From Minisyncoccota bacterium (GTDB lineage: Bacteria > Patescibacteriota > Minisyncoccia > Phycocordibacterales > UBA6065): a stretch of DNA of 64,000 nt. The translations under genes and the position numbers were made by a program. Shown one piece after another: positions 6,202 through 59,125 of this stretch. Positions within the stretch are counted from its first letter, which is position 1. Every line of letters begins with the position of its first letter. The stretch lies in NCBI GenBank assembly GCA_035546035.1, contig DASZXC010000008.1, positions 252,265 through 316,264 on the forward strand. The letters run 5' to 3'. The notes beneath the pieces are model-generated. The model was not told the DNA's origin, did not search any database, and saw only the letters and a program-made list of their open reading frames with translations.

Positions 6202-6272
6202 GAAGCACGCAAAATGCATACAAAGAACGCCCCAGGCCCTAGGGCGTTCTTTGTATGCATTTTGCGTGCTTC
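6202..6272. repeat. Perfect palindrome with 31-bp arms (copy 2 of 3); probable terminator
   Basis: GAAGCACGCAAAATGCATACAAAGAACGCCC-caggcccta-GGGCGTTCTTTGTATGCATTTTGCGTGCTTC directly after stop codon 6201. Confidence 0.8.
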
Positions 6273-12019: not shown

Positions 12020-12200
12020 ACAGTAGTACGATACAGGCCTGAGGATTTGTACAGGACACTTTTCGGCATCTCCTACGTATTACATGCAGAAGGCGTTCTT
12101 TCAACAAATAATCTCAAAAGATCAAAAATAGTGCTGCAAGGGAATCACGCTCGCGGAAAGACCTATTCTTTCCAATGCCGATACTTTACACGGCATGAGC

Positions 12201-16291: not shown

Positions 16292-16359
16292 ACTGGAAAC
16301 AAAGTAATATAAAACACCCCGCCAGGCCCTGGGGTGTTTTATATTACTTTGTTTCCAGT
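16292..16359. repeat. Perfect palindrome with 29-bp arms (copy 3 of 3); bidirectional terminator between convergent genes
   Basis: ACTGGAAACAAAGTAATATAAAACACCCC-gccaggccct-GGGGTGTTTTATATTACTTTGTTTCCAGT; stop codon of minus-strand gene lies inside right arm. Confidence 0.8.
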
Positions 16360-19051: not shown

Positions 19052-19082
19052 AGGCGTATTTTAACAAAATCTATTTTTCGTG

Positions 19083-19153
19083 TTGCCGGACTTGGAATCG
19101 AACCAAAATTTTCGCTTTCAGAGAGCGACGTCCTGCCTTTAGACGATCCGGCA
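19083..19153 (-). tRNA. tRNA-Gln (anticodon CTG), U1:A72 first pair
   Basis: Reverse complement TGCCGGA-TC-GTCT-AAAGGCA-GGAC-G-TCGCT-CTCTGAA-AGCGA-AAAT-TTTGG-TTCGATT-CCAAG-TCCGGCA-A; 71 nt, no CCA. Confidence 0.75.
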
Positions 19154-19271: not shown

Positions 19272-19490
19272 ATGTACCTATACTATCCTACGTTCGGCTT
19301 CTTCAACGTCCTTAATACCGTCTTCTGGATCATATTCGTTATATTCATCATCAAGCTCATTAAACGAGGCAGTAGGCCGTGGAATAACGTCTGGAGCGAT
19401 CGTTCTATGGATATCCTCCGCGAACGGTACGCTAAGGGCGAGATCAGCAAGGAAGAATTCGAGGCGCGAAAGAAAGACCTTCAGGGCTAG
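19272..19490 (+). CDS. SHOCT-domain membrane protein
   Basis: N-terminal TM plus C-terminal SHOCT motif ILRERYAKGEISKEEFEARKKDL. Confidence 0.65.
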   Translation: MYLYYPTFGFFNVLNTVFWIIFVIFIIKLIKRGSRPWNNVWSDRSMDILRERYAKGEISKEEFEARKKDLQG

Positions 19491-20005
19491 CGGTTCTCGA
19501 CGCTCTTTCGGAGCGATTGTATTTCGAGCGATAGGCTGACCCCGACGGCCGCGACGGCTGCCAGGAGCACGCCCGCATAGAACACGAGCCAGTTGAAATC
19601 AGATTCGACGTCAAAGCTCGCCGAAGCCTTGGCATCCGTCACCTGGGCATTCGAGACCCGCACCTCGATCGCGTGCCTCCCGGCCTTGGCTTTCTCCGGA
19701 ACGATGACGAAGTCAACGAACGACGCCTGGGTCTCGATCGCTTTGACGAACTCCGCATCGGCGATAGGCTTTCCGTCTTCGAGCACGCGGTACGATATCT
19801 GGAAATCGCGGCGCATGTCGTTTTCCGGGAACAGCGCCTCTATCTGGAAGTAAAGGCGCTCTCCGGCATGGACCGACGCATATTTTTCAGGGACATAGAC
19901 GGTGACCGACGCCGCGCGCGCCTTATCTGCGCCCAACGCCGCGCCGAAGACGGCGAATATCGCCGCGAGAAGAGCCGCCCTGATGATTGTCTTAGTCGTT
20001 TTCAT
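19487..20005 (-). CDS. Surface-operon gene 4: secreted protein with C-terminal TM anchor, hypothetical
   Basis: Signal peptide (MKTTKTIIRAALLAAIFAVFGAALGA), C-terminal helix; ATG 20005 chosen over TTG 20032; overlaps upstream gene stop by 14 nt. Confidence 0.45.
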   Translation of the reverse strand: MKTTKTIIRAALLAAIFAVFGAALGADKARAASVTVYVPEKYASVHAGERLYFQIEALFPENDMRRDFQISYRVLEDGKPIADAEFVKAIETQASFVDFVIVPEKAKAGRHAIEVRVSNAQVTDAKASASFDVESDFNWLVFYAGVLLAAVAAVGVSLSLEIQSLRKSVENR

Positions 20006-21002
20006 GCTTGATTCGGAAGACCATACTACCAATTACGGCTATAAGCGTTAGAGATGTTGCAAGGGCGAATCCATAGAGGATCATGAGCCGCGTCTCCCAG
20101 TGGAAGAGGTCGCGCTCGTCCGACGCGCTCGCGAGCACCCAGTAATTGTCGGCTTCAGGCCCCTGGCGAACGCCGGGAAGGACGATGTGGCGGTACGAGA
20201 ATACCCGTCCTTCTTCGGTGAAATTGCCCGCCGCCTCGTCTGAAAAGAGCCCTTTTACGACTGCTTCGGGGTAGAGCTCGGGAAGATACGACGACAGTTC
20301 CTTTCCGTTCTTCGATGCCAGGAATTTGCCGTCATGGTCGGCGAGGAATACCACTTCGTTTACGCGTTCGGCTCCGCGGATTTCGTCCAGGACGTATTTG
20401 AGGTCGAGCGTGAGCGCCAGGTATCCGTGCACGATGCCGTCGTATTCGACGGGAGCCATGATGTGGATGAAGGGCGTCCTGGTGCCGTCGGGGAACGTGT
20501 AGTCGAGGAGTCCCGATATCTGTATGTCGGTGCTGCTCGATGACCGCAGGTCGTCGAGGAGGTTCCTGAATTGCGGCTCTTCGTCTATGAACGATGCGAT
20601 AGAGTCGCTGGCCTCTGAATAGTCGTCGGCGACGAATCGGAAAGACTGGCCTTTGATAGGTTCGTAATAGACGTGGCAGTATTCGCGGTGAGAGGCGACG
20701 AAGGCTTTGAGGCGCTTTTCGAACGTAGCCTTGCTCACGGGCGATGCCGACGCATGGGCGGCGATGAGATCGGACATCCAGGCTACTTCGTCCCGCGCGT
20801 CTATGGCGAACCGTTCGAGCGACCGGGACAGGGAATCGAGCCTGTCTCCGGCGGTGTCGAGCGTCGCCGCGCGGGTCAGGCTGGCCGCCTGTTCGTACGC
20901 CAGGTACGCATGCAATGAAATAGAGCATGCGAGGACTATGAGGAGCGACAAAGCGATCCTTTTCGACGCATGGCTGTTAAAGATCCTTTTACCAGTTTTC
21001 AT
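19992..21002 (-). CDS. Surface-operon gene 3: bitopic membrane protein with large extracytoplasmic domain, hypothetical
   Basis: N- and C-terminal TM helices flanking about 270-aa domain; 14-nt overlap with upstream gene. Confidence 0.5.
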   Translation of the reverse strand: MKTGKRIFNSHASKRIALSLLIVLACSISLHAYLAYEQAASLTRAATLDTAGDRLDSLSRSLERFAIDARDEVAWMSDLIAAHASASPVSKATFEKRLKAFVASHREYCHVYYEPIKGQSFRFVADDYSEASDSIASFIDEEPQFRNLLDDLRSSSSTDIQISGLLDYTFPDGTRTPFIHIMAPVEYDGIVHGYLALTLDLKYVLDEIRGAERVNEVVFLADHDGKFLASKNGKELSSYLPELYPEAVVKGLFSDEAAGNFTEEGRVFSYRHIVLPGVRQGPEADNYWVLASASDERDLFHWETRLMILYGFALATSLTLIAVIGSMVFRIKHEND

Positions 21003-22188
21003 ACTTTTTCTTTTGATTTCTCCTCTTTACGGCCGCTAGTCCGTAATAGCGGTGGATGAACCAGGTAATAGCCGATATGATGGCCGCGATAAGCAGATAC
21101 CAGGGCAGTCTGCATCCGAACCACGCGAGAATGGCGACATGATCGACGAGCCATTCGAACGGCCACCAGAGGCCGCACATCATTCCCGTGCCGACGACGT
21201 TGAATCGCGCGTTCAGGGTCTCTCGCGAGCTCGTGCCGTACGTCACGTCGAGCGTGAGCCAGTACGATCCCGGTTCGAGGCCGAGCTCCGTCATGCGCTT
21301 GTTATAGACGATCTGGGTTTCGACGGACGTCGTTGCGGTCTCGGTGCGGCGGGTCGCGCCCGACTCGTCCTTGATGGAGAAGAGCATCGTCGCCGGAGTG
21401 CGGTCCGTGCCGAAATTGGTGAACGTGACGCGCGAGACGAGGTCGTCGCCGACGTCTATATGGTCGGGATCGATCGCGAGCGTGATGTCGAAGAGGAAGC
21501 GGGGAATAGATGCCGCCGTCGGTTCGCCGATCCCGCGCTTTGCCAGCACCGTCGCGGCCGCGAGCGCTTCAGGCGGAGCCGCCGTCGGAAGGATGATCGT
21601 CGTAGGCGCTGCGAGCACGCCTGATGACAGGCCCGGATTCGACGGATTATTCTGGGGAGCGTTTTGCAGGTTAGGGACGTCGCTTTTCGTGCCTGTTCCG
21701 CCGCCTCCGCCAGTCGGCGTTGTCGGTGGCGTCGCCGGAGGCGTAGCGGCAGGTTGCCAGTATGTTTTGACCTTGAAATCAGATGAGCCGCACGACGAAG
21801 TGTTGTCGCAGTTAAGGCTGATCTGCCCGGTAACGCTCGAATTTGCGTATCCGTGAAAGAATCCCTGCGAGTCTATCGTCGCGTTGGAAAAGTCTATGTA
21901 GCCGGAGCTCTCGCCCCAGGCATATCCCGACAGGTCCCCGTGAGCGTCGTTCGCGACATATGTCGACCCTGTCGGCGCGAGGCTTATCCAGCCCAGATTC
22001 TCGCTCCAGACATATCCGGTGAGCTTGGAATCCGTCACTTGGGCATTGCCCTCGTTCGTCCCGAAATTGAGCCAGCCCGCTTTTTCGCTCCATGCGTACG
22101 GATATGACGGATCTATTCCTCCGCCCGCGGCAAATGCGAATGCAGGGAAGAGAAGGGCTAGGAAGAGCGCGATGCGGAGAGTTTTCAT
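20989..22188 (-). CDS. Surface-operon gene 2: secreted protein with W-rich repeats, Pro/Thr linker and C-terminal TM
   Basis: Signal peptide; three repeats of form YAWSEKAGWLNFG / GYVWSENLGWISL / GYAWGESSGYIDF; PATPPATPPTTPTGGGGG linker; C-terminal hydrophobic anchor. Confidence 0.55.
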   Translation of the reverse strand: MKTLRIALFLALLFPAFAFAAGGGIDPSYPYAWSEKAGWLNFGTNEGNAQVTDSKLTGYVWSENLGWISLAPTGSTYVANDAHGDLSGYAWGESSGYIDFSNATIDSQGFFHGYANSSVTGQISLNCDNTSSCGSSDFKVKTYWQPAATPPATPPTTPTGGGGGTGTKSDVPNLQNAPQNNPSNPGLSSGVLAAPTTIILPTAAPPEALAAATVLAKRGIGEPTAASIPRFLFDITLAIDPDHIDVGDDLVSRVTFTNFGTDRTPATMLFSIKDESGATRRTETATTSVETQIVYNKRMTELGLEPGSYWLTLDVTYGTSSRETLNARFNVVGTGMMCGLWWPFEWLVDHVAILAWFGCRLPWYLLIAAIISAITWFIHRYYGLAAVKRRNQKKKYENW

Positions 22189-22189
22189 G

Positions 22190-25150
22190 TTATTGGACCA
22201 CGATGTAATTCCATTTATACGTTGCGGCGCCGCTGATGGTCACGCCAAGGCCGGTCACCGTAAAGCCTGTCGTGTTCGAGTTCACGTACAGGTTCAGGGC
22301 CGTAAGGCCGAGAGGGAGCTGTGCGGCGGCCGAGCTCGCCGGCGTAAGGACGACGAACGGCGCCGTGCCATAGGGCGTAGCGAATGTCAGCGTGACGAGC
22401 GCCCCCAATCCCAGGACGCCTCCTGAACCCAGCGTGAACGTGATCTCGCCCGCTGTGTCCGTGCCGCGCACCACGACGGAACCTCCGGAGCCAAGGGTGA
22501 GGGCCGCGCCTGCTGACGCGCTCGGCGTTCCGCCCTGGCCTTTGAGGTGGACGACCGATGCCGTGCCGCCGACGGAGAGCAGATCGTTCGGCGTGGACGA
22601 TCCTACGCCGACCTTGCCCGCGCTCGAGATAGTCATGGTCGAAGTGCCCGAGACGGTACTGCCATTCATGGCGTAATATGCCATCTGTCCGGCGAGGCCC
22701 GGAGAGACGACCGTCGATGACGCTAGGCCAAGCGACGACGTCGCGACCCATGCTGGCGATCCGCCGACGAGGGAGAGTATCGAACCGTTCGTCGTCGCGG
22801 AAAGTCTTGAAAGAGTCCCTGCGCCCGATGCATAGAGGATGTCGCCGACCGAATACGTCGTCTGTCCCGTGCCGCCGTGGCCCGCGTCTACGGCCGTACC
22901 GTTCCATATTCCCGCCGTTATGGTGCCCAGGGTCGTTATGGACGTCTGGCCGACATATGTCGGCGCGATATCCACTGACGGATTGCCCGATACGCCGTCG
23001 CCGTTCGTCAAGGTGATGCGGTTCGATGTGCCCTGGATCGTGCGCGCGGCATATGTGCCTGCGCCCGTGCGGACCAGCATTCCCGCCGTTCCTACGGCGC
23101 CGAGATTATCGAGGGCCGCGCCGTTGGCGACGCCGTATCCGGCGAGCGATGTCGGCGTTCCGGTAATTGATGACCACGTCGTCGAAGCATTAACGGTGAA
23201 AAGGGTCGAAGTCGCCACGGATACCCATGCCGATCCGTTCCAGGACAATATGTTTCCCGACGTTCCGCCCGCGGCATGGGCGATCGTTGACGAGCCGCTA
23301 ATGTACGACGCTACCTGGCTGTTGCTATAGAATTTATTATTCCCTTCGGTGATATCATCGGTGGTGATGCCGGTGAAATTGGCGTTCAGCGTGTTCCCCG
23401 ACCATGACAAGTGCGTGCCGGCCGTTATGCGCGCCGATGGGGATTGATAGAACGACGCCCATTCGGTCGTCGAAGCGACCAAAGGTATGGTGCGGCCCGA
23501 TGCGACCGATATGGTGTCGCCCGTGCGTGCGAGAGGGAATGAAAACAAGAGTGGCGATTCATACGTTCCTCCCGCGGCGAAAAGCGACGACGTCGCGACT
23601 GAAACCCATGCTGTGCCGTTCCAGGATAGGAGATTGCCCGAAGTCCCTCCCGCCGCGTGAGCTATTGTCGAAGAGCTGTTTATATATGTAGCGACTTGGC
23701 CGTTGCTGAAATATTTATTGGTGCCCTCGGGTATATCATCCGTCGTAATGCCTATGAAGCTTGCATTCAACGTGTTGCCGCTCCAAGACAGATGAGTTCC
23801 GGCGGTGATTCGTGATGACGGATTCTGAAGGAAGACATTCCATTCAGACGTTGAAGCCTGAAGCGGAATCGTATATCCCGCCGCAAGCGCGACAGAATTA
23901 GCTGAACGCGAAAGAGGAAACGAGAACGACAGAGGCAGTTCATAGTCAGTGCCCGATTGTGCCGCAGAGACGTTTCCCGATCCGTCGGCTTTGATGATCC
24001 CCGATACGGCGCCCAGATCCGCGCCGCCGCTATTCGATATATTAAGCGACGACGTCGCGACCCATGCAGGCGATCCGCTCACTATGGAAAGGATTTGGCC
24101 ATTCGAGCCTCCTGACGACAATCCGGTACCGCCGTGCGCGATGCCCAGAACCCCTGTCATGTGGCTTATGTCCAGAGCGCTTTCATCGACGGAGAACGTC
24201 GTCCCTGCGAGGTTCAATCCCGAACCCGCAGAATAAGCGATGCCTCCGCCCGTGACGCCGAGGGATGAAGTGGCGATCCATGTCGGCGCGCCCGCGACGA
24301 CAGACAGCACTTGGCCGTTCGATCCGACAGATGAAAGTCCGGTACCTCCATGCGCCGTCCCGAGGACGCCCGTCATATTGGCGATATTGAGAGCGCTTTC
24401 ATTTACCGAAAACGTCGTGCCGACGAGGCTCAGACCCGAACCTGCGGAATATACCGTGCCGCTGCTCGATACGCCCAGCGTCGTCGTCGAAACCCAGGTC
24501 GGCGCGCCGGATACGATTTTCAGGACCTCGCCTTCGTTTCCGTTTGGGAACGATGCGACTGTCGTCGGACCCGATGCATAGAGGAGCGCATTCGACGCGA
24601 ACGAAGTCTGTCCTGTGCCGCCTTTCGCGACGGGAAGGACTCCGCCTATGAGCGACAGGTCGAGCTGCGATTGATTGACCGAGAATACCGAGCCGACCAG
24701 CGTCAGTCCGGTTCCCGCGCTGTAAGTATTGGTCGTCGAGCCGGTCGTCGAAGCGAATGCCGTCGGATCGAGCCACATCGGTACGCCGCCCGATATGGTG
24801 AGCACCTGTCCGTCAGTGCCGACATGGAGCGCTGAAAGCGTATTGGCTGACGATGCGTAGATCACGTCGCCCGACGCATATGAATTGAGGCCGGTTCCGC
24901 CTTGGCCCGCAGAGAGAGGCGTCGTCAGGCCGGAAAGGGACGTAATATCGCCGTTCGCGGCCTTGGCGGCGTAATTGAATTGGACCGTGCAGTTGGTCGT
25001 GCTCGGAAGGCAATTCGGCGTCAGCGTTTCGGCCGGATTGTACGCGCTTCCCGGCGGAGCAGCGAGGGCGGCAAGCTGGCTTCCTCCGAACGAAGCGATT
25101 CCAAGCGCGAAAACATAAAGCCCCGCGCGCACGAATGTCCTGATTCTCAT
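22190..25150 (-). CDS. Surface-operon gene 1: 986-aa secreted repeat protein (tail-fibre-like GGTG repeats)
   Basis: Signal peptide MRIRTFVRAGLYVFALGIASFGGSQLAALA; more than 8 copies of about 45-aa repeat (...HGGTGLSS.GSNGQVLS.V.G.P.W..TSSLG...); two about 130-aa near-identical repeats (ELPLSFSFPLSRSAN... / ESPLLFSFPLARTGD...) also visible as DNA direct repeats 23340-24060. Confidence 0.7.
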   Translation of the reverse strand: MRIRTFVRAGLYVFALGIASFGGSQLAALAAPPGSAYNPAETLTPNCLPSTTNCTVQFNYAAKAANGDITSLSGLTTPLSAGQGGTGLNSYASGDVIYASSANTLSALHVGTDGQVLTISGGVPMWLDPTAFASTTGSTTNTYSAGTGLTLVGSVFSVNQSQLDLSLIGGVLPVAKGGTGQTSFASNALLYASGPTTVASFPNGNEGEVLKIVSGAPTWVSTTTLGVSSSGTVYSAGSGLSLVGTTFSVNESALNIANMTGVLGTAHGGTGLSSVGSNGQVLSVVAGAPTWIATSSLGVTGGGIAYSAGSGLNLAGTTFSVDESALDISHMTGVLGIAHGGTGLSSGGSNGQILSIVSGSPAWVATSSLNISNSGGADLGAVSGIIKADGSGNVSAAQSGTDYELPLSFSFPLSRSANSVALAAGYTIPLQASTSEWNVFLQNPSSRITAGTHLSWSGNTLNASFIGITTDDIPEGTNKYFSNGQVATYINSSSTIAHAAGGTSGNLLSWNGTAWVSVATSSLFAAGGTYESPLLFSFPLARTGDTISVASGRTIPLVASTTEWASFYQSPSARITAGTHLSWSGNTLNANFTGITTDDITEGNNKFYSNSQVASYISGSSTIAHAAGGTSGNILSWNGSAWVSVATSTLFTVNASTTWSSITGTPTSLAGYGVANGAALDNLGAVGTAGMLVRTGAGTYAARTIQGTSNRITLTNGDGVSGNPSVDIAPTYVGQTSITTLGTITAGIWNGTAVDAGHGGTGQTTYSVGDILYASGAGTLSRLSATTNGSILSLVGGSPAWVATSSLGLASSTVVSPGLAGQMAYYAMNGSTVSGTSTMTISSAGKVGVGSSTPNDLLSVGGTASVVHLKGQGGTPSASAGAALTLGSGGSVVVRGTDTAGEITFTLGSGGVLGLGALVTLTFATPYGTAPFVVLTPASSAAAQLPLGLTALNLYVNSNTTGFTVTGLGVTISGAATYKWNYIVVQ

Positions 25151-25219
25151 GCGATCAATTAATGCTAGGTATTACGAAAGCATTGTGCGTATGACGGCGT
25201 AAAGGAAAGATAAAGAAAG

Positions 25220-25235
25220 GGTCAAGAAAAAGTCA
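25220..25235 (-). promoter_or_regulatory. Shared 16-bp motif, site 1 (coding-strand TGACTTTTTCTTGACC) about 70 nt upstream of surface-protein operon
   Basis: Identical 16-mer GGTCAAGAAAAAGTCA also at 28859-28874; direct repeat TGAC-N7-TGAC (11-bp periodicity) typical of OmpR/PhoB-family binding sites. Confidence 0.45.
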
Positions 25236-27197
25236 GCCGGCATAAGCTTCCAGAAACTGCATCATGGTCTCGCGGTCGGCGAGGGCTTTGCGCGCGGCGC
25301 TTTCAAGGGGCGTCAAAAGGGAGTTCAGATACGAATGCTCTTTGAGCGCCGGATTGGTTTCGAGAGACGATCGCGCTTTGTCCGCATGGAAGAGCACCGC
25401 CGCCGCGACGTCGCGTATGGTCTTGTCCCAGAAAACGGAACGGAGGGCAGACATGTCTTCGCTCAGGTCGCATTCGCGCTCGCCGGTCTTCGCTTTCCAC
25501 TGAGAAAGGCATCGAACGCTCGCTGGGTTGAAGAATCCGCGCTCGAGGTCCTTCTGCCAGTCATGAGCGTCGTCATTCAATTGCCGCGCGACGAGATAAT
25601 TCTTGAAAAAGGCGAGCAGGCTCGTTATCTCGCGGGAATCAGGGCTGAAACCGCGGCGGATGAGCATGGTGATCGGTCCCAATGCATGCCCGATCGACTT
25701 TTCGGCGATGACGTCGAGATTTTTATAGTCGGGAAGGCTTTCGACGTCGATTATCTTTCCGGCGAATCTGGTCTGGTGCCTTTCCCAGGCATTCGCTGAT
25801 TCGATCTTGTCCATGAGCGCCGTGAATACGCCGCGCTCCGCGGCCGGGATCATATCGGTATATATGTGCACGACCTCGCGGAGCATCATGTTCGCCAGCG
25901 GCACGTGCTCGGGTTCGCCTTCGTCGTCCAAAATGTCGTCGTATATGCGGTATGCGATCCAGCCGAACAGATTCGCGGCGCCGAGCGTGACTGCTTCGCC
26001 AGCGTCTGATTTTTCCCGTGCGGGCGGGACGCCGATCGATTTTTCGAAATGATAGGGAAGGAGCGTGATCTGCCGGCCCGGATCGCCGAGCGTGAGCATG
26101 CGTATGTAGCGGCCGAGCGATTCTATCTGCCGCATGCTCTGCCCGCCGCATCGGTTAGCGACCCTGTTCACGATCGCTTCATGGACCGAATCATCATACG
26201 TCCGGTCGTCCTGCGCGCGATCGTTCCGCGCCTTTATGTCTTGCGTGGCAGAATTCAATCGAACGTACATTGCCAGAGCTTCGACGCAGAACGCCGCGGT
26301 CAGAGCGGGCGCACCGCTGTACAGGATCGAGCTGCGCGCTTCTTCTATATAGATAGGGTCGGCTTTCCATTCGCGTTCGTCGCAGATCTGTTCAAGCCTT
26401 TTTGCCATGATTCCTAATCGCGAATCGTCTGCATGCCGGAAAGTGCCCGAATCGGCATATGTATACCCGGCCAGAGTCGTTAAAGCGCAGGCGGTTTCAA
26501 GCGCCGTATTGCAGAGTTCGTCTGTTTGCCGCAGGGCGACGATATCGGCGACGGCTTTTTCGGCGGCATTTTGCGGAATGCTTCGTTCCAAAAATCTGGC
26601 CATGAAATACAGCATGACCACGGGCGACGCATAATATTTTGACCGATACGTTCCCGTTTCTATGCGCGACAAACAGAGCGCTTTCAGATTCGGCAAAACG
26701 ATATGTTGCGTTTTCAGGAACGTTCCGATATTGGCATTCACGACCGGGTCGATATCGTGCCAGCGGCGTCGGTCCGCGTCAGGTACGATACCGGAGACGA
26801 GCCACGTCTCGTACGGGCCGCCCGGCTTCTCCTCGGCAGAAATCAGCGCTTCAGTGAATCCTGCCAGCGCCGCGCCGTCTATTTTTTCCGGCATGTATGC
26901 GGCCAACGCCTGCAACGCGCACGACGTATCGTCCAGGTCGTCGGGGTACGGCTTGGCCCGCGCCTCGTCGCAGTCGCGGCGCCAATAGTTCCATGTCCAT
27001 CGGGCGTTGCGCTCTTTTAATATGAATTCGCAGCCTTTGCGTATGATATCCGCCGCGACCGGTTCGTTCTGTACGCCGCGCAAGGCGAGCAATATAAGAG
27101 ACGTATGAAAGACATTATCAAACCCGCCGTCCTTCTTCTGCGAGGACTCGATATGGCGCAAGGCCTTCTGTATTGATCTTTGAGGATTGCTTTCCAT
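25233..27197 (-). CDS. Two-domain terpene-synthase-like protein: N-terminal prenyltransferase/squalene-cyclase repeat domain with DxDDT[AS]-like motif plus C-terminal isoprenoid-synthase-fold domain with two Asp-rich motifs
   Basis: N-term: QKKDGGF and EKPGGPYETW PFTB/QW-like repeats, DLDDTS (class II cyclase DxDDTA-like). C-term: YDDILDDE (DDxxD) and RQLNDDAHD (FQxxDDxxD-like) about 115 aa apart. Confidence 0.55.
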   Translation of the reverse strand: MESNPQRSIQKALRHIESSQKKDGGFDNVFHTSLILLALRGVQNEPVAADIIRKGCEFILKERNARWTWNYWRRDCDEARAKPYPDDLDDTSCALQALAAYMPEKIDGAALAGFTEALISAEEKPGGPYETWLVSGIVPDADRRRWHDIDPVVNANIGTFLKTQHIVLPNLKALCLSRIETGTYRSKYYASPVVMLYFMARFLERSIPQNAAEKAVADIVALRQTDELCNTALETACALTTLAGYTYADSGTFRHADDSRLGIMAKRLEQICDEREWKADPIYIEEARSSILYSGAPALTAAFCVEALAMYVRLNSATQDIKARNDRAQDDRTYDDSVHEAIVNRVANRCGGQSMRQIESLGRYIRMLTLGDPGRQITLLPYHFEKSIGVPPAREKSDAGEAVTLGAANLFGWIAYRIYDDILDDEGEPEHVPLANMMLREVVHIYTDMIPAAERGVFTALMDKIESANAWERHQTRFAGKIIDVESLPDYKNLDVIAEKSIGHALGPITMLIRRGFSPDSREITSLLAFFKNYLVARQLNDDAHDWQKDLERGFFNPASVRCLSQWKAKTGERECDLSEDMSALRSVFWDKTIRDVAAAVLFHADKARSSLETNPALKEHSYLNSLLTPLESAARKALADRETMMQFLEAYAG

Positions 27198-28653
27198 TTC
27201 CTCCTGGTGGATGAGCGCGAGGGAAGACGATGGTGAAATTCGAGCCTTCCCGCTCGACGCTTTTGACCGCTATGGTCCCTTTGAAATCTTTGACGACGAT
27301 GTCCTGCGCATTCGATAGTCCGATGCCCATCCCTCGGTGTCTCTCTTTGGTGGTGAAGAACGGATCGAATATCTTGCCGATGACGGCCGCCGATATGCCG
27401 CAGCCATGGTCTCGCACGATGATCTTGATATCGCCCTTGTTTTCGATCAGGCGCACGGCGACGATCCTCTGATCGAACGGCAATGCAGTATTGTTGTACG
27501 AATCGATCGCGTTCGATATGAGGTTTCCGATGACGTGCTGGAGCTTTGTCGGATTGCCGAACGTCGAAACGCGCTTGTCCGCCGCCCAGTCTATGCGGAC
27601 TTTCGTCTGCGCCGCTTTATACGAGAGAAGCGCCAATGCCTCTTCGATCTCGCCGTTCACCGAGAACTCTTCCTCATGGTCGGGCATGGTCAGCTGCTTT
27701 CGGACCGTCGTCACGAATCGCTCGAGCTTCCGCGAAGCCTGGACCGCCCGGCCGACGCTTTCCCTGATATCCTGCATATCGGGGTGGAGCGAATCCTTCA
27801 GATTGTTGACGTTCGCCGCCACCGCCGAAAGGGGATTCATCAGGTCGTGGAATATTCCCGACGACAGCCTGCCGAATTCGGCGAAATGATAGAGCTGCGC
27901 CAATTTTTCCGCCTGCGCCTGGCGCAATTCGCGGGTACGCTCGACGACCGTCGATTCGAGCGACTCGTTCTTCTCTATGAGCGCCCTTTCCGACCTTCGC
28001 GCCCGGGCGAGCGAGTTCTCTATGTCCTTGTTCGAAAGCCAGGCGATCAATTCGATAGCGAAGAAGAACAGGCAATATTTGATGACGTCTACGCTCTCGT
28101 GCGTCTCCTGCATCCATTTCGTGTCTATCGTGATGGCGCCCGCATCGCCCATGAACCTGCAGACGATGAGAGATATCATGACGATGGCGCTGAAGGCGAG
28201 GCTGAATCTAGTGCCGATGAGCGCCCCTGCCATGATGATAAGGAGCGCGTACATGAGGAGCGTGGACGGCAGGTCCGTGCCCCAGCGATAGACGCCGTAC
28301 GTCGTCGCGGCATAGAAGAACGTGATGGCGAAATACGAGACGAGGTCGAAATAGCCCTTGCGCGAAGCGATATATCCCGCGATGAACAGGGCGGGGAATA
28401 TGCTGAAAACGAAGAACGGTATGCCCTCGTATCCCGGCCCTGCTTCGATCTGGCTGATGAGGACGAGCGTATCGAGCGCGAGCAAGAGGCATATCGACCC
28501 TACGAGTATGACGTTCAGGATCGTCTCCCTGCGGCGGTCGTCTTCGGTCGTCGAGCGCGGCTCGAAGAATATCCGGTATAGAAAACGGATACTTCTTTTA
28601 AAGAAACGTTCGGAGCTTTGAGCGTCCTCGTTTTTCCGGAGAGAAGTATCCAT
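27118..28653 (-). CDS. Sensor histidine kinase (polytopic membrane sensor domain)
   Basis: Six N-terminal TM helices, HisKA H-box (IFHDLMNPLSAV), HATPase_c N/G1/G2 boxes (GNLISNAIDSY, DHGCGIS, GMGIGLS); 3-prime end overlaps next gene by 80 nt. Confidence 0.85.
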   Translation of the reverse strand: MDTSLRKNEDAQSSERFFKRSIRFLYRIFFEPRSTTEDDRRRETILNVILVGSICLLLALDTLVLISQIEAGPGYEGIPFFVFSIFPALFIAGYIASRKGYFDLVSYFAITFFYAATTYGVYRWGTDLPSTLLMYALLIIMAGALIGTRFSLAFSAIVMISLIVCRFMGDAGAITIDTKWMQETHESVDVIKYCLFFFAIELIAWLSNKDIENSLARARRSERALIEKNESLESTVVERTRELRQAQAEKLAQLYHFAEFGRLSSGIFHDLMNPLSAVAANVNNLKDSLHPDMQDIRESVGRAVQASRKLERFVTTVRKQLTMPDHEEEFSVNGEIEEALALLSYKAAQTKVRIDWAADKRVSTFGNPTKLQHVIGNLISNAIDSYNNTALPFDQRIVAVRLIENKGDIKIIVRDHGCGISAAVIGKIFDPFFTTKERHRGMGIGLSNAQDIVVKDFKGTIAVKSVEREGSNFTIVFPRAHPPGGNGKQSSKINTEGLAPYRVLAEEGRRV

Positions 28654-28802
28654 TTTCCCTTAGTCCTTAGGCCTCATCGGTCCATGGGTACATGGTAGCC
28701 GACGCGAGGGCAGCCTCCCGTGCCTCTACGGCGCTTCGCGAAGAAGCGTCGGTGAGGATCTTTTCGACAACGTTGTTCATATGCATGAGAAATGAGTTGC
28801 TA

Positions 28803-28837
28803 AGGAACAGATGCCTATTCGACGATAGGTTGTTCCT
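28803..28837. repeat. Nested palindrome in regulator-kinase intergenic gap
   Basis: AGGAACAG-atg-CCTATTCGACGATAGG-ttg-TTCCT: outer arms AGGAACA/TGTTCCT, inner arms CCTAT/ATAGG. Confidence 0.4.
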
Positions 28838-28858
28838 TCGAAATTGTCGGGCCTGCCC

Positions 28859-28874
28859 GGTCAAGAAAAAGTCA
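28859..28874 (-). promoter_or_regulatory. Shared 16-bp motif, site 2, just downstream of response-regulator stop and about 200 nt upstream of kinase start
   Basis: GGTCAAGAAAAAGTCA identical to 25220-25235. Confidence 0.45.
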
Positions 28875-28887
28875 AATTATAGTAAAA

Positions 28888-29556
28888 CTAATCGTCCTTT
28901 ATCTTGTATCCGCGGCCGGGAATGTTGTAGATCAGCTTTTCCCGCTTCTTTTCGAGCTTTTTGCGCAAGTTGACGATGTGTGTCTCTATGGTCTTCGAGA
29001 GGGGGTCGCTCTCCATATCCCAGACGTGCTCCATGATGGTGCCGCGCGATACGACTTTGCCCTTGTTGCGGAGGAGGAGCTCGAGGAGGGCGAATTCTTT
29101 CCTGGTGAGATACACGTCTATGCCGTTCTTGGTCACTTCCTGGCTTCCGGCATCGAGGAGCACGCCGCCCGCGGCGAACGTCGTCGGTTCGACTTTGTAC
29201 GTGCGGCGGAGCAGGGCGCGCATGCGCGATACGAGCTCCTGATGGGAATACGGCTTGGTGATATAGTCGTCGGCGCCGGAATCGAGGGCAAGCGCCTTGT
29301 CGTCCACGTGGGCATTGACCGAGAGCATCAGGATAGGGACGTGGCGCCCGACGCGGCGGATCTCCTGGCAGACTTCGAGACCGGTCTTTTTCGGCATCGA
29401 ATGATCCAGGATGATCAGGTCGTATTCGTTGGTGCGGGCCATGAACGAACCGGCCGCGCCGTCCGCCGCAGTGTCTACGGCAAAACATTCTGCCTGGAGT
29501 GTGGCTTTGAGGAGGTCTCTGGTCTCCGCTTGGTCGTCCACGACGAGTATCCTCAT
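28888..29556 (-). CDS. OmpR-family response regulator (receiver plus winged-helix DNA-binding domain)
   Basis: MRILVVDDQ, phospho-acceptor context LIILDHSMP, C-terminal trans_reg_C (RLELLLRNKGKVVSRGTI...NIPGRGYKI); start at ATG 29556. Confidence 0.85.
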   Translation of the reverse strand: MRILVVDDQAETRDLLKATLQAECFAVDTAADGAAGSFMARTNEYDLIILDHSMPKKTGLEVCQEIRRVGRHVPILMLSVNAHVDDKALALDSGADDYITKPYSHQELVSRMRALLRRTYKVEPTTFAAGGVLLDAGSQEVTKNGIDVYLTRKEFALLELLLRNKGKVVSRGTIMEHVWDMESDPLSKTIETHIVNLRKKLEKKREKLIYNIPGRGYKIKDD

Positions 29557-31309: not shown

Positions 31310-32832
31310 ATGGCCACCGACGTAGTACTGCGGTTCGACGAAGTGTCGTTCGAATACGGGCACAATAAGCCGATCCTCGACGAGGTGAGCTTTTCGGTGC
31401 GCCGCGGCTCGAAGATCACCATCATGGGCCAGAACGGCGCGGGCAAGTCGACGATATTCGGCATGATATTGGCGGCAGCGGGGCAGAATGCGGGCCAGGG
31501 TCAGACTACGCCGAAAATTACGAGTGGCAACATCCACATCACCCGCGGCCTTTCGATCGCCATCGCGCGGCAGGTCATTCCGCGACCGGAATTGGCGCTT
31601 TCCGTCAGGGACTTTTTCCAAAAAGCCCTCATGGACACGAATGGCGGCAAAAAGTGTACGATATCGACCCGCGCATGGACGAAGCGCTCGATGCGGTGAA
31701 CTTTCCATTGCCTGCGACGGGAAAGGACCGCGTTGTCAGCTCGTTCTCGGGCGGGCAGCAGGCGCGATTTTTGCTAGCTTCGGCCTTGGTCCAGAATCCG
31801 GATATCCTGTTGCTCGACGAGCCGACGAACAATCTGGACAAAGCGGGTATCGAGCACCTGACCGCATTCCTCAAAGCGTATCCGAAGACCGTCATCGTCA
31901 TTTCGCACGAGGCGGATTTCCTCAATTCATTCACGGACGGCGTCTTGTACCTGGATGTGCATACCAAGAAAGTCGAGCAGTATCAGGGCGACTATTATGA
32001 CGTGCTCAAAGACATAACTGCGCGCGTCGATCGCGAAAATCGCGCCAATGCGTTGCTCCAGAAAGAGATCCAGGCCAAGAAAGACCAGGCCAATGCATTC
32101 GCCATGAAGGGCGGCGGGCTTCGCTTGGTCGCCAAGCGCATGCGCGAGAAAGCCGAAGAGCTCGAAGAAGACATCGTCGAGGTGCGCAAGGAAGACAAGA
32201 CCATCAAGCCGTTCACCATTCCTGCGCAGCCTGAATTCACGGGCGTGATCATGGAGATCAAGGGATATAAGGTATTCAAGAACCATAAGCCGGTGAAAAG
32301 GACATGCGCGGTGAAATTGAAGCGCCGCCAGCACCTGCTTTTGAAGGGTCCGAACGGCATAGGGAAGTCGACGCTACTCGAAGCTTTGGCGACGGGCAAG
32401 AATTCAGATGGCAGCGCGAACGAAGGCGCGACGATCGCATCGGGCGCGCGCGTCGGATACTATCGCCAGGATTTTTCGACCCTGAATTTCGAAGATACGG
32501 TGCACGAATCGCTGCTGTCGGCGTCGGCGACGCATATCGAACAGCATATCCGCGCGGTCGCGGCAGGATTTTTGATACATGCAGACATGATGGATACCAA
32601 GATCGGCGCATTGTCCGAAGGCCAGAAAGGCCTCGTGGCATTTGCGCGATTGGTCCTGCAGAAGCCCAGCCTCCTCATTTTGGACGAGCCTACGAACCAT
32701 ATTAATTTCAGGCACATTCCTGTGATCGCCAAGGCGCTGGATGAATATGAAGGTGCGATGATATTGGTGAGCCATGTGCCGGAATTTGTGTCGCAAATTC
32801 GGATCGATGAGACGTTGGATTTGGAGGGGTAG
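31310..32832 (+). pseudogene. ABC-F family ATPase (two ABC domains) interrupted by a +1/-1 frame change in an A5 run (31649-31653); frameshifted gene, possible sequencing error
   Basis: ORF 31310-31699 (Walker A GQNGAGKST) and ORF 31654-32832 (signature SGGQQAR, second Walker A GPNGIGKST, LSEGQKG, ILDEPTNH) are contiguous in different frames; one extra A restores NGGKKVYDIDPR. Confidence 0.7.
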
Positions 32833-32998
32833 TCAGGTTGTCTCATTTTTTAATATAACGTATTATCCGTCTGTGAACTTATGGCTCCACACTGAGGAGA
32901 GGCCAAGAATAAACACTATTAAATTAATAGTGGCTAGGTTTGCTTCAGATAGAAATTTAAAATCCGTCTTTTCTGGCAATGAGAAAATCTGGCCAATA

Positions 32999-34264
32999 AT
33001 GAAAGACGGTTTGTTTACATTTAAATACAAGATTGAGGGTATTAAATGTGAAAATGTTGAAAATATTTTTATAACCATTATTAGCGGTTCTTCAAGTTTT
33101 ACAGATTATCTGGTCTTTTATTCAGAAAACCCGCCGCTTGTAACTGATTCACCTCTTTATCTCATTGAAGAGACTAAGACTGGTGATAGTGAGAGCCGTA
33201 ACACGGCAGCGTATCAACGTTCTTCAAAATTTGTCTATGCCAGCTTCTTTTATCCCAAGGTTCCTAAAATCATGTTGTACAGCCTAAGGGTTGCGCAGAG
33301 AAAGGAATCGACCTCAACTTCTGTCTTCGGTACAAAACTTCTGGCGACGCTAGGTGTTGAGATTTTGGGCAGAATATTACAGAAAGACGCCTACTCAGCA
33401 TTTTCAAATATTGATGAATTGATCGAGCTTAAGAATGAAATGTCCCTTCCTCATTACGGGCTTGCTGTGCGGATAAATAAGGTAGGGGATGTAATTAAAA
33501 TATCTGCAAGGCTTGAAAAATCGGGCTATCTTTCTCATGATCCCAATATCGGTATGACGACAGTGATCAGTGCGTGTCTTAGAAAATTAGGTTGGAAGGG
33601 CCGCATCGTCATAACTGATCATGGCTTGGCGAGTCAAAAAAATGTAGGAGTAAGAAACAAATTTATTGCTATTGCCAATCAGCTCGGTGTTGAGCTCGAA
33701 AATCTAACCATACCCAGGGTTTCTCTTCATGGAGAATATTGGAAGGTTGAGGCAAACAAGGAGAAAATAGGAACAATTTTTACTAGTATTCTCTGCGAAG
33801 AATTTACGGACTCGGTTGCTATCTATGAAAATCATGGAGGCTGTGAAAGGGGCTATTTTATTTCTGAAAAAAATAAAGAAAATATAGAATATCTTGCTGT
33901 CCCAAAATTTTCAGATAGAGAAAAATACAAGGCGGGGGACAAAAGTTATATCATTTCTATTCCCGATCTAGTCCTCTACGATAGAAAAAGAGACATAATC
34001 ATTAATGCGGAAGGCAAGGTTTTTGCAAAGCGGGAGGAGGGTTATAAGGAAATAGGTGGGTTTGACTCGTTCGAAGATAAATTTATTAAAAAGTATTATC
34101 CGGGCTCAGAAATTTCAAGGACGCTCATACTTTCAGGCAGTAAAGACGAGGCGATTGATAATCCAATTACAGGCTTACTCTTAAATCAAGACGGATTAAT
34201 CGTCTTGGGGGAAAAGACACCTCTCTTGTTCAAGGAGGCTGTGGCGAATCTACTTTCTTTGTAG
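32999..34264 (+). CDS. Putative Type II restriction endonuclease of low-GC R-M island (two PD-(D/E)xK-like motifs)
   Basis: Low-GC coding; motifs TDSPLYLIEETK and IPDLVLYDRKRDIIINAEGK; convergent with and overlapping 3-prime end of methyltransferase gene; start at first ATG inside AT-rich region rather than the extended ORF start 32774. Confidence 0.4.
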   Translation: MKDGLFTFKYKIEGIKCENVENIFITIISGSSSFTDYLVFYSENPPLVTDSPLYLIEETKTGDSESRNTAAYQRSSKFVYASFFYPKVPKIMLYSLRVAQRKESTSTSVFGTKLLATLGVEILGRILQKDAYSAFSNIDELIELKNEMSLPHYGLAVRINKVGDVIKISARLEKSGYLSHDPNIGMTTVISACLRKLGWKGRIVITDHGLASQKNVGVRNKFIAIANQLGVELENLTIPRVSLHGEYWKVEANKEKIGTIFTSILCEEFTDSVAIYENHGGCERGYFISEKNKENIEYLAVPKFSDREKYKAGDKSYIISIPDLVLYDRKRDIIINAEGKVFAKREEGYKEIGGFDSFEDKFIKKYYPGSEISRTLILSGSKDEAIDNPITGLLLNQDGLIVLGEKTPLLFKEAVANLLSL

Positions 34265-35314
34265 TAAATATAGCTGTTCTTTTATATGCTTTTTTGTCGC
34301 AGACTCCCCTTTGTTATTGCTTTTGAAACGGAGATAGTTGATTTCCTTCATTTGAACGCTTCCAAACTCACTAAGTATTTTTAGAATCTCTGCCTGAGGC
34401 ATAATACCTTCAGAGTTGTAACTAAGAAGTAGGCATTTGTATTTTGCTTCACTCACTACAGTTTTTAATGCTCTGAGTGCACTATTTGGATTACAGAATT
34501 CTGACTTCTGTTCACTGTAATCTCGCATACCCGTAATCCCCTTTATCGCTGGATTGTCATATCTCGCAATTGTCTCCAGTAAATGATAATTTGGTGCATA
34601 CTGTCTTTCGTTATATGGAGGATCAAGGTAGAGAACATCAACCTTTAAGTCCGATATTAAATCCATGCTATTTTTGTTATAGACACGGTAATTTCTCTTC
34701 CCGGTGTAAAGCTTTATAGGTTTTATCTCGAATCTTTTCAAAGATCTCGGGTCGTATTTTTTTAAGAAAGCGGCATATACACCAGAAATATTTGCGTAAA
34801 AGGGTACACTTTCGATCAAACATGCCAGTAGCACAAAATATTCATTTTCTGAAATTATTTTTTCTTTTCTCCATAATTCAATCTGTTGGCGTTGGGCATC
34901 AATTTTCTCCGCGTTCTTTCCAGTTAAATATTTACGTATGAATTGCTCGTTCCGCGTTCCTTCTTCAGTGTAGTTTTCATATATAAACCCTTTGATACCG
35001 CCCAAATTATTAAGATAGAACAAGACCTGTTCTAGGGAATTTGAGAATAGAGCCTCTGATGCGGTTGTTCCGATCCTGTTTAAAAGCCTCGCAAATCTAA
35101 CCTCCTCATTATTTTCTATATAAGCTTTCTGTAATACGAAAGAGAAGTACATTAGATCCGATGAAAGGACAGAGTAACCCTTTTCCTTAAAGAATCTACC
35201 TACGTTTGATGTACCGGAAAAAAAGTCACAAAAGGTGCCGTCTTGGAATCCTAAATCAACGACGGTTGAGTGTATTTTCTCCAGGAGCTTTTCTTTGTTT
35301 CCGATGAATCTCAT
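34250..35314 (-). CDS. N6-adenine DNA methyltransferase (Dam/D12-class, DPPY motif)
   Basis: N-terminal MRFIGNKEKLL, FxGxG region and catalytic VLYLDPPYNE; start overlaps stop of upstream methyltransferase (TAATG). Confidence 0.8.
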   Translation of the reverse strand: MRFIGNKEKLLEKIHSTVVDLGFQDGTFCDFFSGTSNVGRFFKEKGYSVLSSDLMYFSFVLQKAYIENNEEVRFARLLNRIGTTASEALFSNSLEQVLFYLNNLGGIKGFIYENYTEEGTRNEQFIRKYLTGKNAEKIDAQRQQIELWRKEKIISENEYFVLLACLIESVPFYANISGVYAAFLKKYDPRSLKRFEIKPIKLYTGKRNYRVYNKNSMDLISDLKVDVLYLDPPYNERQYAPNYHLLETIARYDNPAIKGITGMRDYSEQKSEFCNPNSALRALKTVVSEAKYKCLLLSYNSEGIMPQAEILKILSEFGSVQMKEINYLRFKSNNKGESATKKHIKEQLYLLQRK

Positions 35315-36423: not shown

Positions 36424-36445
36424 TATATCAATAATGATTGATATA
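36424..36445 (-). promoter_or_regulatory. Palindromic operator abutting start codon of HTH-methyltransferase gene (C-box-like)
   Basis: TATATCAA-taatga-TTGATATA; a third TTGATAT copy at 36463-36469. Confidence 0.5.
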
Positions 36446-58991: not shown

Positions 58992-59048
58992 TGTCGTTAA
59001 GGGTCTTAAGGGTTGAAAGTTCTAAGTTTGAGCCTATTTTACATTATA

Positions 59049-59077
59049 TTGACAGCTCTTGTCAAGAGGTGTATAAT
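59049..59077 (+). promoter_or_regulatory. Consensus sigma70 promoter TTGACA-N17-TATAAT with -35 embedded in palindrome TTGACAgctctTGTCAA
   Basis: TTGACA 59049-59054, TATAAT 59072-59077, palindrome 59049-59065; 48 nt upstream of ORF 59126. Confidence 0.6.
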
Positions 59078-59125
59078 TAGGTTAGGTTAACGTCTCCTCA
59101 GTTCACCCTCAACCCCGATTACGCC

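Follow-up and report, generated by a model that had tools for sequence, protein, structure and literature searches.

In the 64,000-nucleotide (nt) stretch of a Minisyncoccota genome analysed here (contig DASZXC010000008.1, positions 252,265 to 316,264; hereafter the window), positions 19487 to 29556 hold genes for a two-component system, a terpene-synthase-like enzyme and four surface proteins, together with an overlooked gene for a small Trp-containing peptide and two arrays of short direct repeats. We examine here whether these parts make up an autoregulated peptide-signalling module with a linked output operon. The original prediction, drawn from the letters alone, had treated the locus as one cluster because of the shared orientation of its genes and an identical 16-bp motif, and proposed that the response regulator controls both the kinase gene and the surface-protein operon. 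Every gene of the cluster does lie on the minus strand. For comparison we used one genome per species (GTDB species representatives), which gave 351 relatives; the best 80 of these 351 loci were used, and essentially all of them are metagenome-assembled genomes (MAGs) of Patescibacteria. They are numbered L001, L003 and so on. The features of the locus, in the direction of transcription, are the following.

28888 to 29556, minus strand: response regulator of the OmpR/PhoB family, with its ATG at 29556; Pfam Response_reg (7e-28) and Trans_reg_C (1e-23)
28860 to 28886, minus strand: operator-like array 1, three direct repeats at 11-bp spacing (TTTAC 28886-28882, TTGAC 28875-28871, TTGAC 28864-28860)
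28843 to 28848, minus strand: -10-like hexamer GACAAT, assigned by eye, 10 nt 3' of the last array-1 hexamer, TTGACC
28804 to 28836, minus strand: stem-loop, with outer stem GGAACA/TGTTCC, inner stem CCTAT/ATAGG and loop CGTCGA (28824-28819)
28667 to 28780, minus strand: prepeptide gene, 37 amino acids (aa), MNNVVEKILTDASSRSAVEAREAALASATMYPWTDEA; an alternative ATG at 28786 would give 39 aa
27118 to 28653, minus strand: sensor histidine kinase, 511 aa; Pfam HisKA and HATPase_c
25233 to 27197, minus strand: two-domain enzyme, 654 aa, annotated by NCBI as 642 aa from 27161
25199 to 25236, minus strand: operator-like array 2, four direct repeats at 11-bp spacing (CTGAC 25236-25232, TTGAC 25225-25221, TTTAT 25214-25210, TTTAC 25203-25199)
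25182 to 25187, minus strand: -10-like hexamer CACAAT, assigned by eye, 10 nt 3' of the last array-2 hexamer, TTTACG
22190 to 25150, minus strand: 986-aa secreted protein with a signal peptide and repeated GGTG-containing units; orthologue in L005
20989 to 22188, minus strand: 399-aa protein carrying a signal peptide and, at its C-terminus, a membrane anchor; homologues 3' of the enzyme gene in L005, L013, L029 and L048
19992 to 21002, minus strand: 336-aa protein with a weak dCache-like domain between two membrane segments; homologues in L005, L029 and L048
19487 to 20032, minus strand: 181-aa protein carrying a signal peptide and, at its C-terminus, a membrane anchor; homologues in L005, L013, L029 and L048

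The assignments of the larger genes made in the original prediction hold up well. The regulator has the receiver and the winged-helix DNA-binding domain of the OmpR family (Response_reg and Trans_reg_C), and it scores below the cut-off of every NCBIfam equivalog, PhoB included. The kinase is identified as such by its HisKA and HATPase_c domains; in a simple hydropathy scan it shows 5-6 membrane segments (residues 48-206) and is almost without extracellular loops. The predicted 'terpene-synthase-like fusion' is borne out by motifs, profile and fold, all of which point to a class II terpene cyclase-like domain joined to a trans-isoprenyl-diphosphate-synthase-like domain. The sequence of this 654-aa protein matches HVU06718.1, listed as hypothetical in a Candidatus Paceibacterota MAG, at 100% identity. 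Its N-terminal, cyclase-like domain contains the DxDD-type motif PYPDDLDDT, and its C-terminal, synthase-like domain contains YDDxLD and QLNDDAHDW, the second of the QxxDDxxD form; across 49 sequences of the family, D87, D89, T91, D420, D424, Q539, D542, D543 and D546 are invariant. A profile of the family matches drimenol synthase 9mhs (8e-18, residues 28-308) and also AstC. Searched with Foldseek, the AlphaFold model (predicted local distance difference test score 92) matches MstE 6sbb (1e-05) and drimenyl diphosphate synthase 7xru with one half, and polyprenyl, farnesyl and hexaprenyl diphosphate synthases (4jyx, 3aqb, 1rqj; 5e-05) with the other. The family is large, comprising 1,581 clusters at 50% identity (E <= 1e-30), nearly all of them 620-700 aa long.

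The regulator and kinase genes are separated by 234 nt, which the original prediction had singled out as unusual for a two-component pair. The gap turns out not to be an oddity of such a pair, because it holds the prepeptide gene, which heads a peptide-kinase-enzyme operon, along with a putative promoter and a conserved hairpin; it is a defining feature of a module resembling the ComQXPA systems considered below. In the window, the 37-aa product ends in ...MYPWTDEA, and the corresponding peptide of L005 differs from it by a single residue. Homologous peptides were found at the corresponding position in other relatives, 53 distinct ones in all, with lengths of 31-57 aa. A Trp is invariant among them, and it is followed by just 1-4 residues in 50 of the 53; it is preceded by Pro in 39 and is the sole Trp of the peptide in 50. 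The peptides also share a leader motif, (K/E)K(I/V)LTDKxAR(N/S), and those of many lineages have a hydrophobic middle segment.

Neighbouring genes were counted over the 66 distinct species-representative loci that had enough upstream DNA. The kinase gene adjoins the enzyme gene in 64 of them, a peptide gene recognised by the family hidden Markov model lies just upstream of the kinase in 60 (with 4 more slightly outside the interval searched), and the regulator gene is adjacent in 53. Even where the enzyme is 38-40% identical to that of the window, as in L001 and L003/L004, the order is regulator, a called 34-aa gene, kinase and enzyme. Regulator, prepeptide, multi-pass kinase and fusion enzyme thus form a module that is conserved across the Patescibacteria, or Candidate Phyla Radiation (CPR). 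A few loci carry other taxon labels, namely Gammaproteobacteria, Methylomirabilota, Sulfotelmatobacter or Vitreimonas (for example L010, L012, L016, L037, L044); these labels are probably wrong and due to mislabelled bins, and the Vitreimonas locus has a GC content of only 43%. No transporter, protease or immunity-type genes were found to be conserved with the module. CPR bacteria are ultra-small, mostly uncultured and host-dependent, and have very few regulatory genes. The near-invariant architecture of the module in hundreds of species suggests that signalling, whether between cells or between cell and host, matters to their way of life. A literature search returned no account of this module, nor of peptide-based signalling, in CPR/Patescibacteria, and a survey of quorum-sensing genes in CPR genomes does not mention ComX or ComQ (PMC7567580).

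We now turn to the repeated motif from which the original prediction had started. The 16-mer GGTCAAGAAAAAGTCA, which reads TGACTTTTTCTTGACC on the minus (coding) strand, was indeed found exactly twice in the window, at 25220-25235 and 28859-28874, with no third copy on either strand of the 64 kb at up to two mismatches. One copy falls within the 234-nt gap that separates the TAG of the regulator gene (28890-28888) from the kinase start (28653). The other shares bases with the TGA that terminates the 654-aa gene (25235-25233), and its end is 70 nt 5' of the ATG of the 986-aa gene (25150). The identity alone is not significant, because the window holds about four other isolated exact pairs of 16-17-mers that look accidental (for example 19900/61187, 43491/55926 and 45186/61676), and because simple arithmetic puts the chance expectation at about 0.5 such pairs per orientation in 64 kb. 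The TGAC-N7-TGAC pattern that had been read out of the 16-mer fares similarly: it is present, and with the predicted 11-bp spacing, but taken alone it is not significant: with 1.2 occurrences expected, 3 were counted, and at least as many turn up in 12 of 100 shuffles.

What the two sites have in common is instead an array of three to four TT(T/G)A(C/T) repeats at exactly 11 bp, whose last unit ends 10 nt before a -10-like hexamer. A doublet of the repeat, TTKAY-N6-TTKAY (K, G or T; Y, C or T), occurs 7 times in the window against 1.2 expected; none of 100 shuffles reaches 7, and 4 of the 7 matches are chained within the two array sites. The 16-mer corresponds to units 2-3 of array 1 and to units 1-2 of array 2, where the CTGAC unit runs into the TGA stop of the 654-aa gene. 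It is the best-matching part of both arrays and no unit by itself. As an operator unit it was ruled out, since the arrays are longer, differ between the two sites in their register with respect to the -10-like element, and are kept in L005 without the identity. A reading of TTGACC as an ordinary -35 element was likewise ruled out: in the window and in most of the relatives with a long regulator-peptide spacer (type A, see below) there is no acceptable -10 at 16-18 nt, and a -10-like hexamer is found at 10 nt. With a spacing of 10 nt and not 16-18 nt, the last repeat cannot serve as a normal -35. Consistent with this, a consensus promoter scan gave no match at either array site. The GACAAT of array 1 is kept in L005, and L001, L031, L040, L070 and L078 have GATACT, TATACT or TATAAT at the same offset; at the offset of the array-2 hexamer, L005 has TAGCAT. 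Elsewhere, a promoter-like TAGCCA-16-TATACT lies 5' of the regulator gene (29605-29578). A textbook promoter, TTGACA-17-TATAAT, was seen on the plus strand at about 59048-59076 (site 59038-59080), upstream of an uncharacterised 121-aa open reading frame (ORF). This indicates that the genome uses canonical sigma-70-type promoters, and because a TTTAC lies 11 bp upstream of its -35, the site also matches the doublet pattern.

The arrays are not confined to the window. Type A comprises the 30 loci in which the spacer between regulator and peptide gene is at least 70 nt. A Gibbs sampler run on these spacers recovered a 28-nt motif with information peaks at positions 1, 2, 4 / 12, 13, 15 / 23, 24, 26; these correspond to three TTnA units with an 11-bp spacing, starting usually 3-25 nt past the regulator stop. 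Its score was 310.6, as compared with 192-208 in ten shuffled controls. The architecture of array 1 recurs in L001, L003, L005, L007, L020, L031, L040 and others, as exemplified by TTTACaaaaagTTTACcctttcTTGAT (L001), TTTACttaaacTTTACccattcTTGAC (L003) and TTTACattctcTTTACcttttcTTTAC (L007), and the arrays are kept, always adjoining the regulator gene, across lineages whose proteins are only 30-40% identical. The strict triple TT[TG]A[ACT] x3 at 11 bp was found 28 times in about 1 Mb, counting both strands; 18 of the 28 fall either between the regulator and peptide genes or upstream of the regulator gene, and 3 are found just downstream of the enzyme gene. In L001, a related triple (TTTAC-N6-TTTAC-N6-TTGCA, 12063-12089, minus strand) lies between convergent genes and points in the antisense direction into the enzyme gene's 3' end; it might act as an antisense promoter or bind the regulator in some other role.

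In a second group of lineages, type B, the peptide gene directly follows the regulator gene behind a strong Shine-Dalgarno sequence, and repeats of the form TTTAAT-N5-TTTAAT precede the regulator gene, with a -10 following them after about 10 nt. Type B loci are Microgenomates-like (for example L014, L015, L016, L021, L037, L044 and L046). The two arrangements track two subfamilies of the regulator recognition helix, which is suggestive, though only suggestive, of co-variation between regulator and operator.

Two loci bear on the second site, upstream of the surface operon. L005, the closest relative, has an enzyme 59% identical to that of the window and orthologues of all four surface-operon proteins. 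Its surface-operon intergenic region contains TTGAC-N6-TTTAC-N6-TTTAC at 12020-12046, and this array stands out as conserved, with an insertion upstream of it and diverged sequence downstream. The comparison with orthologous loci that the original prediction had called for thus finds the array retained, and not absent, upstream of the orthologous operon. In L083, a Nomurabacteria MAG, a 76-nt stretch of the peptide promoter (8278-8353, plus strand) is duplicated with 79% identity at 1809-1884 (minus strand), 6.4 kb away and upstream of a gene for a secreted 401-aa protein. The operator core of this duplicate matches at 36 of 40 positions, none of 100 shuffled queries finds a match, and the similarity stops at the -10. 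L083 is thus an independent case of the two-site pattern of the window. Among all type A loci it was the only one with a long operator duplicate (at least 29 of 40 matches), so second sites are either not general or too degenerate for that test.

Taken together, the footprint common to the family, L005 and L083 lend comparative support to the proposal that the regulator would control both promoters. One part of that proposal has to be amended, as the upstream site fronts the 37-aa peptide gene and not the kinase gene. We consider it quite likely that the arrays are the operator of the regulator, and refer to them as the putative operator.

The nested palindrome noted in the original prediction at 28803-28837 is real as well. 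The hairpin lies between the -10 and the ATG of the peptide gene. Its stems, of 5-12 bp, are entirely different between loci, and the loop contains (G)GTCGA. In the 30 type A spacers, GTCG was present in 22 against 3.3 expected, and GTCG-flanking stems of at least 6 bp numbered 13, again against 3.3 expected. An anchored alignment of 11 sequences showed compensatory changes in all 6 of the 6 consensus pairs. The hairpin was also recognised in L003, L005, L007, L020, L041, L060, L070, L073, L078, L083 and L084. No Rfam family matched, either in the whole window at gathering thresholds or in 28640-28900 at E <= 10, and a scan of the GC-rich window for further GTCGA-loop hairpins was uninformative, as GTCGA occurs 233 times in it. 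A T-loop-like reading of the loop was dropped because its register does not fit. The hairpin is absent from the second (output) promoters, so it belongs to the prepeptide transcript and not to the operator. On comparative grounds we regard the GTCGA-loop hairpin as a candidate new RNA motif.

Downstream of array 2, the four-gene surface-protein operon is as predicted, in that the encoded proteins carry signal peptides and/or membrane anchors. No terminator was found between the enzyme gene and the 986-aa gene, and the 181-aa gene is the last before a tRNA-Gln (19082-19153). The 986-aa, 399-aa and 181-aa proteins belong to no Pfam or NCBIfam family, and in the 336-aa protein the dCache_1 match (8e-07) is below the Pfam cut-off. 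Searches of the surface proteins against PHROGs and PDB sequences yielded a single weak family match, between the 986-aa protein and phrog_30390, a phage protein family of uncharacterised function. The 986-aa protein is internally repetitive, with '...GGTG(L/Q)...' units and DNA repeats at 22730/23582/24044. Homologues of three of the surface proteins lie directly 3' of the enzyme gene in L005, L013, L029 and L048, and in the last three of these loci the enzyme is only about 32-35% identical to that of the window. The linkage is recurrent and not universal, which suggests that the surface operon is a lineage-specific output.

Characterised Trp prenyltransferases offer a plausible model of how these parts may work together. 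ComQ (Bacillus), PalQ and StheQ (Sphaerobacter thermophilus, Chloroflexi) are enzymes resembling trans-isoprenyl diphosphate synthases which, according to the available text of the sources, attach a prenyl group to a Trp close to the C-terminus of a short ribosomal peptide (PMC13290415; bioRxiv 10.64898/2026.08.29.745113). ChrPC, a fusion of a prenyltransferase with an MstE-like cyclase, uses C10-C20 donors to prenylate a Trp of a peptide and afterwards cyclises the prenyl group, as far as the available text of a 2026 review describes it (Hubrich et al., Chem 2024, summarised in PMC13290415). By analogy with ChrPC-type maturases and ComQ, the synthase-like domain of the 654-aa enzyme would prenylate the Trp of the prepeptide, and the cyclase domain, as in ChrPC-type maturases, would cyclise the prenyl chain. 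A short C-terminal lipopeptide would then be released or exported and be sensed within the membrane by the kinase, which would phosphorylate the regulator. The phosphorylated regulator would bind the repeats head-to-tail, in the manner of PhoB at pho boxes, which take the place of the -35, and would activate both the prepeptide-kinase-enzyme operon, giving positive feedback, and the adjacent envelope-protein operon, which would be the output.

Our confidence in this scheme varies with its parts. That the signal is a Trp-lipopeptide is a view that we favour by a little. The combined picture of a peptide-signalling module with a linked output operon is in our judgement probably right, and is the best single explanation of the data. 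In its widest form the proposal would be that of an autoregulated cell-cell signalling system found throughout the Patescibacteria, in which a prenylated and terpene-cyclised Trp peptide acts through an intramembrane kinase and an OmpR-type regulator on 11-bp-phased TT(T/G)AC repeats, in which envelope or surface proteins with a possible part in attachment, be it to hosts or between the cells themselves, are turned on in some lineages, and in which a GGUCGA-loop hairpin in the 5' untranslated region controls the prepeptide transcript. This wider form is put forward tentatively.

Several points weigh against the peptide-signalling scheme. At the promoters, the -10 elements (GACAAT and CACAAT) are weak and assigned by eye, and the exact identity of the 16-mer, which is lost in L005, is perhaps partly accidental. 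The motif control consisted of mononucleotide shuffles only, TTTAAT-type repeats are less specific in AT-rich genomes, and the motif counts for the genome itself cover the 64-kb window as their whole extent. With respect to the output, the genes 3' of the enzyme gene are unrelated in most loci. The enzyme has no Pfam match above threshold and no NCBIfam match, and polyprenyl_synt (PF00348) matches weakly in only 1 of 49 family members. It has, moreover, the canonical second aspartate-rich motif (DDxxD) and not the pseudo-motif NDxxx of ComQ and StheQ, so that its C-terminal domain could yet be a synthase, chain-elongating or of class I, with free isoprenoids as substrates. Finally, the gene order is regulator-peptide-kinase-enzyme (A-X-P-Q) and not Q-X-P-A as in ComQXPA, and the regulator is of the OmpR/winged-helix type, whereas the output domain of ComA is of the NarL/LuxR type.

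Three alternatives to the peptide-signalling scheme were considered. In the first, the product would be an autoinduced antimicrobial, membrane-active, bacteriocin-like or host-directed effector peptide, sensed by the two-component system just to raise its own synthesis, in the way that NisRK responds to nisin; the envelope operon would serve its export, immunity or delivery, and the operator logic would be unchanged. The available text of the review describes ChrPC/NctPC-type products as specialised peptide natural products and not as known pheromones (PMC13290415), which speaks for an effector, as do the hydrophobic middle segment of the prepeptide in many lineages and the envelope-operon homologues that adjoin the module in five loci. 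We nevertheless think an effector unlikely, as conserved transporter, protease or immunity-type genes are missing from the module, the core after the Trp is only 1-4 residues long, and a near-universal architecture in very small genomes is a better fit to core signalling than to a variable weapon.

In the second alternative, which we find improbable to a similar degree, the enzyme would make a free cyclic terpenoid, either a membrane lipid or a diffusible signal, its synthase-like domain building or ionising a prenyl diphosphate that the cyclase domain then closes into a ring. The kinase would sense this lipid or the state of the membrane, and the small protein would be a modulator of the kinase or a membrane micro-protein and no substrate. 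This would agree with the intramembrane-type sensor of the kinase, with the invariance of both DDxxD and QxxDDxxD, as in true isoprenyl diphosphate synthases, and with the best matches of the N-terminal domain, the drimenol and drimenyl diphosphate synthases, which act on free farnesyl diphosphate. It leaves unexplained, however, why 53 peptides should have an invariant near-C-terminal Trp and a conserved leader. The top fold match, MstE, cyclises a prenyl chain that is already on an aromatic ring, and the chain-elongation motif (RRG) around the first aspartate-rich motif was not seen in the consensus. All characterised peptide prenyltransferases that are trans-isoprenyl-diphosphate-synthase-like target Trp, as far as the available review text goes (PMC13290415).

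Least probable, in our estimate, is that the 16-mer is a coincidence or part of a generic promoter (-35-like TTGAC with T-rich spacers) and that the surface operon is expressed by read-through or from a constitutive promoter, a reading that draws on the four or so other exact 16-17-mer pairs, the insignificance of TGAC-N7-TGAC alone, the TTTAC 11 bp upstream of TTGACA in the constitutive-type promoter at 59038-59080 and the missing terminator 5' of the 986-aa gene, but that has to contend with the 10-nt (not 16-18-nt) distance from the last repeat to the -10-like hexamer at both sites, with 3-4 repeats kept next to the regulator in strict 11-bp phase across lineages at 30-40% protein identity, with the L005 surface-operon array kept while its flanks diverge, and with the independent duplicate in L083.

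Some further features of the window lie apart from the cluster. Three long perfect hairpins with stems of about 25 bp were seen at 546-602, 6202-6257 and 16292-16344; the first and the third share, inverted with respect to each other, a core of 35 nt (AAAACACCCC...GGGGTGTTTT). Their appearance is that of extended bidirectional terminators or of a small repeated element. A low-GC island at about 32700-36430 (GC 0.37-0.45, against about 0.56 elsewhere) encodes two D12-class N6-adenine DNA methyltransferases, one of them with a Cro/C1 helix-turn-helix, and an uncharacterised 496-aa ORF, and is probably a horizontally acquired restriction-modification-like cassette. Between 46000 and 47700, long stretches of DNA (up to about 50 nt) recur exactly, in several families of 2-3 copies spaced 330-1390 nt apart, which indicates internal repeats of a large gene.

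If the peptide-signalling scheme is right, lipidation of Trp as in ComX would extend far beyond the Firmicutes, and prenyltransferase-cyclase maturases would acquire a function in physiology, the making of signalling molecules; in the widest form of the scheme, the module would be a deep-branching and structurally elaborated counterpart of ComQXPA. In the genome analysed here the scheme predicts a two-promoter regulon that links the signal to a set of secreted and membrane-anchored proteins. Peptide, enzyme, kinase, regulator and operator are small enough for reconstitution in E. coli.

Peptide pheromone circuits, Trp prenyltransferase-cyclases and direct-repeat operators of OmpR-type regulators are all known kinds of system; as far as could be checked, their combination, the host group and the operator are undescribed. 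The closest precedent for the arrays is the pho box bound by PhoB in E. coli, which is built of 11-bp direct-repeat units, replaces the -35, ends about 10 bp upstream of the -10 and lies in front of an autoregulated operon. The arrays resemble it in the winged-helix regulator, the 11-bp periodicity, the 5-7-bp core followed by a T/A-rich spacer and the distance of about 10 bp to the -10. They differ from it in the core, which is TT(T/G)A(C/T) and not CTGTCAT, and in having three to four units, and there is no link to phosphate here. Likewise, the logic of a modified ribosomal peptide that is sensed by a two-component system, which then activates the peptide's own promoter and a second promoter in the cluster, recalls nisin and NisRK. 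Nisin, however, depends on lanthionine chemistry and on a dedicated transporter and immunity genes, and those genes are absent here.

With regard to the enzyme, ComQ-like Trp prenyltransferases with an adjacent peptide gene are known outside Bacillus from StheQ/StheX and PalQ/PalX, the modified Trp being second from the C-terminus in StheX and C-terminal in PalX (bioRxiv 10.64898/2026.08.29.745113; PMC10853753). Unlike the enzyme of the window, StheQ and PalQ are single-domain proteins without a cyclase, the papers describe no adjacent kinase or regulator, and StheQ has the pseudo-motif NDxxx. The likeness to ChrPC and NctPC is closer: both folds and both catalytic motifs are present, and a Trp peptide is encoded nearby, two genes upstream of the enzyme gene (60-64 of 66 loci). 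It is drawn from architecture and motifs, ChrPC being known to us through its description in the available review text (PMC13290415). Because of this ChrPC-type architecture, the two catalytic motifs and the neighbouring Trp peptide, the 654-aa enzyme is best taken as being of a known kind. In the module, the substrate Trp would be near-terminal in a very short core, unlike in ChrPC/NctPC, and the review text available to us ties these enzymes neither to a dedicated two-component system nor to an autoregulatory operator or CPR bacteria (PMC13290415).

As a whole, the module is most reminiscent of ComQXPA, with which it shares four adjacent genes on the same strand, for an enzyme of the isoprenoid-synthase fold, a Trp-containing prepeptide, a polytopic membrane kinase and a response regulator; in both cases the mature signal would be expected to be a short C-terminal peptide lipidated on Trp. 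Besides the window, 53-64 of 66 related loci have these genes, likewise in one orientation. A census in 2014, in which a Trp near the C-terminus of the prepeptide was one criterion, placed the comQXPA-type locus in Firmicutes only (PMC4008528), and a preprint of August 2026 presented StheQ as the first extension beyond this phylum (bioRxiv 10.64898/2026.08.29.745113). The host group thus differs, being Firmicutes in the 2014 census and CPR here. ComQ is a single-domain protein of about 300 aa with DDxxD and the pseudo-motif NDxxx, whereas the enzyme of the window is a 654-aa fusion with an additional class II cyclase domain and a canonical QxxDDxxD. ComX is about 55 aa long and hypervariable, whereas the prepeptide of the window has 37 aa and a leader that is conserved in its family, and ComP has 8-10 membrane helices, compared with the 5-6 segments counted here by the hydropathy scan. 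Given the OmpR-type regulator, the different gene order, the extra enzyme domain and the canonical second motif, the module is not strictly ComQXPA; judging by these comparisons, it most likely works in the manner of ComQXPA with a peptide modification of the ChrPC type.

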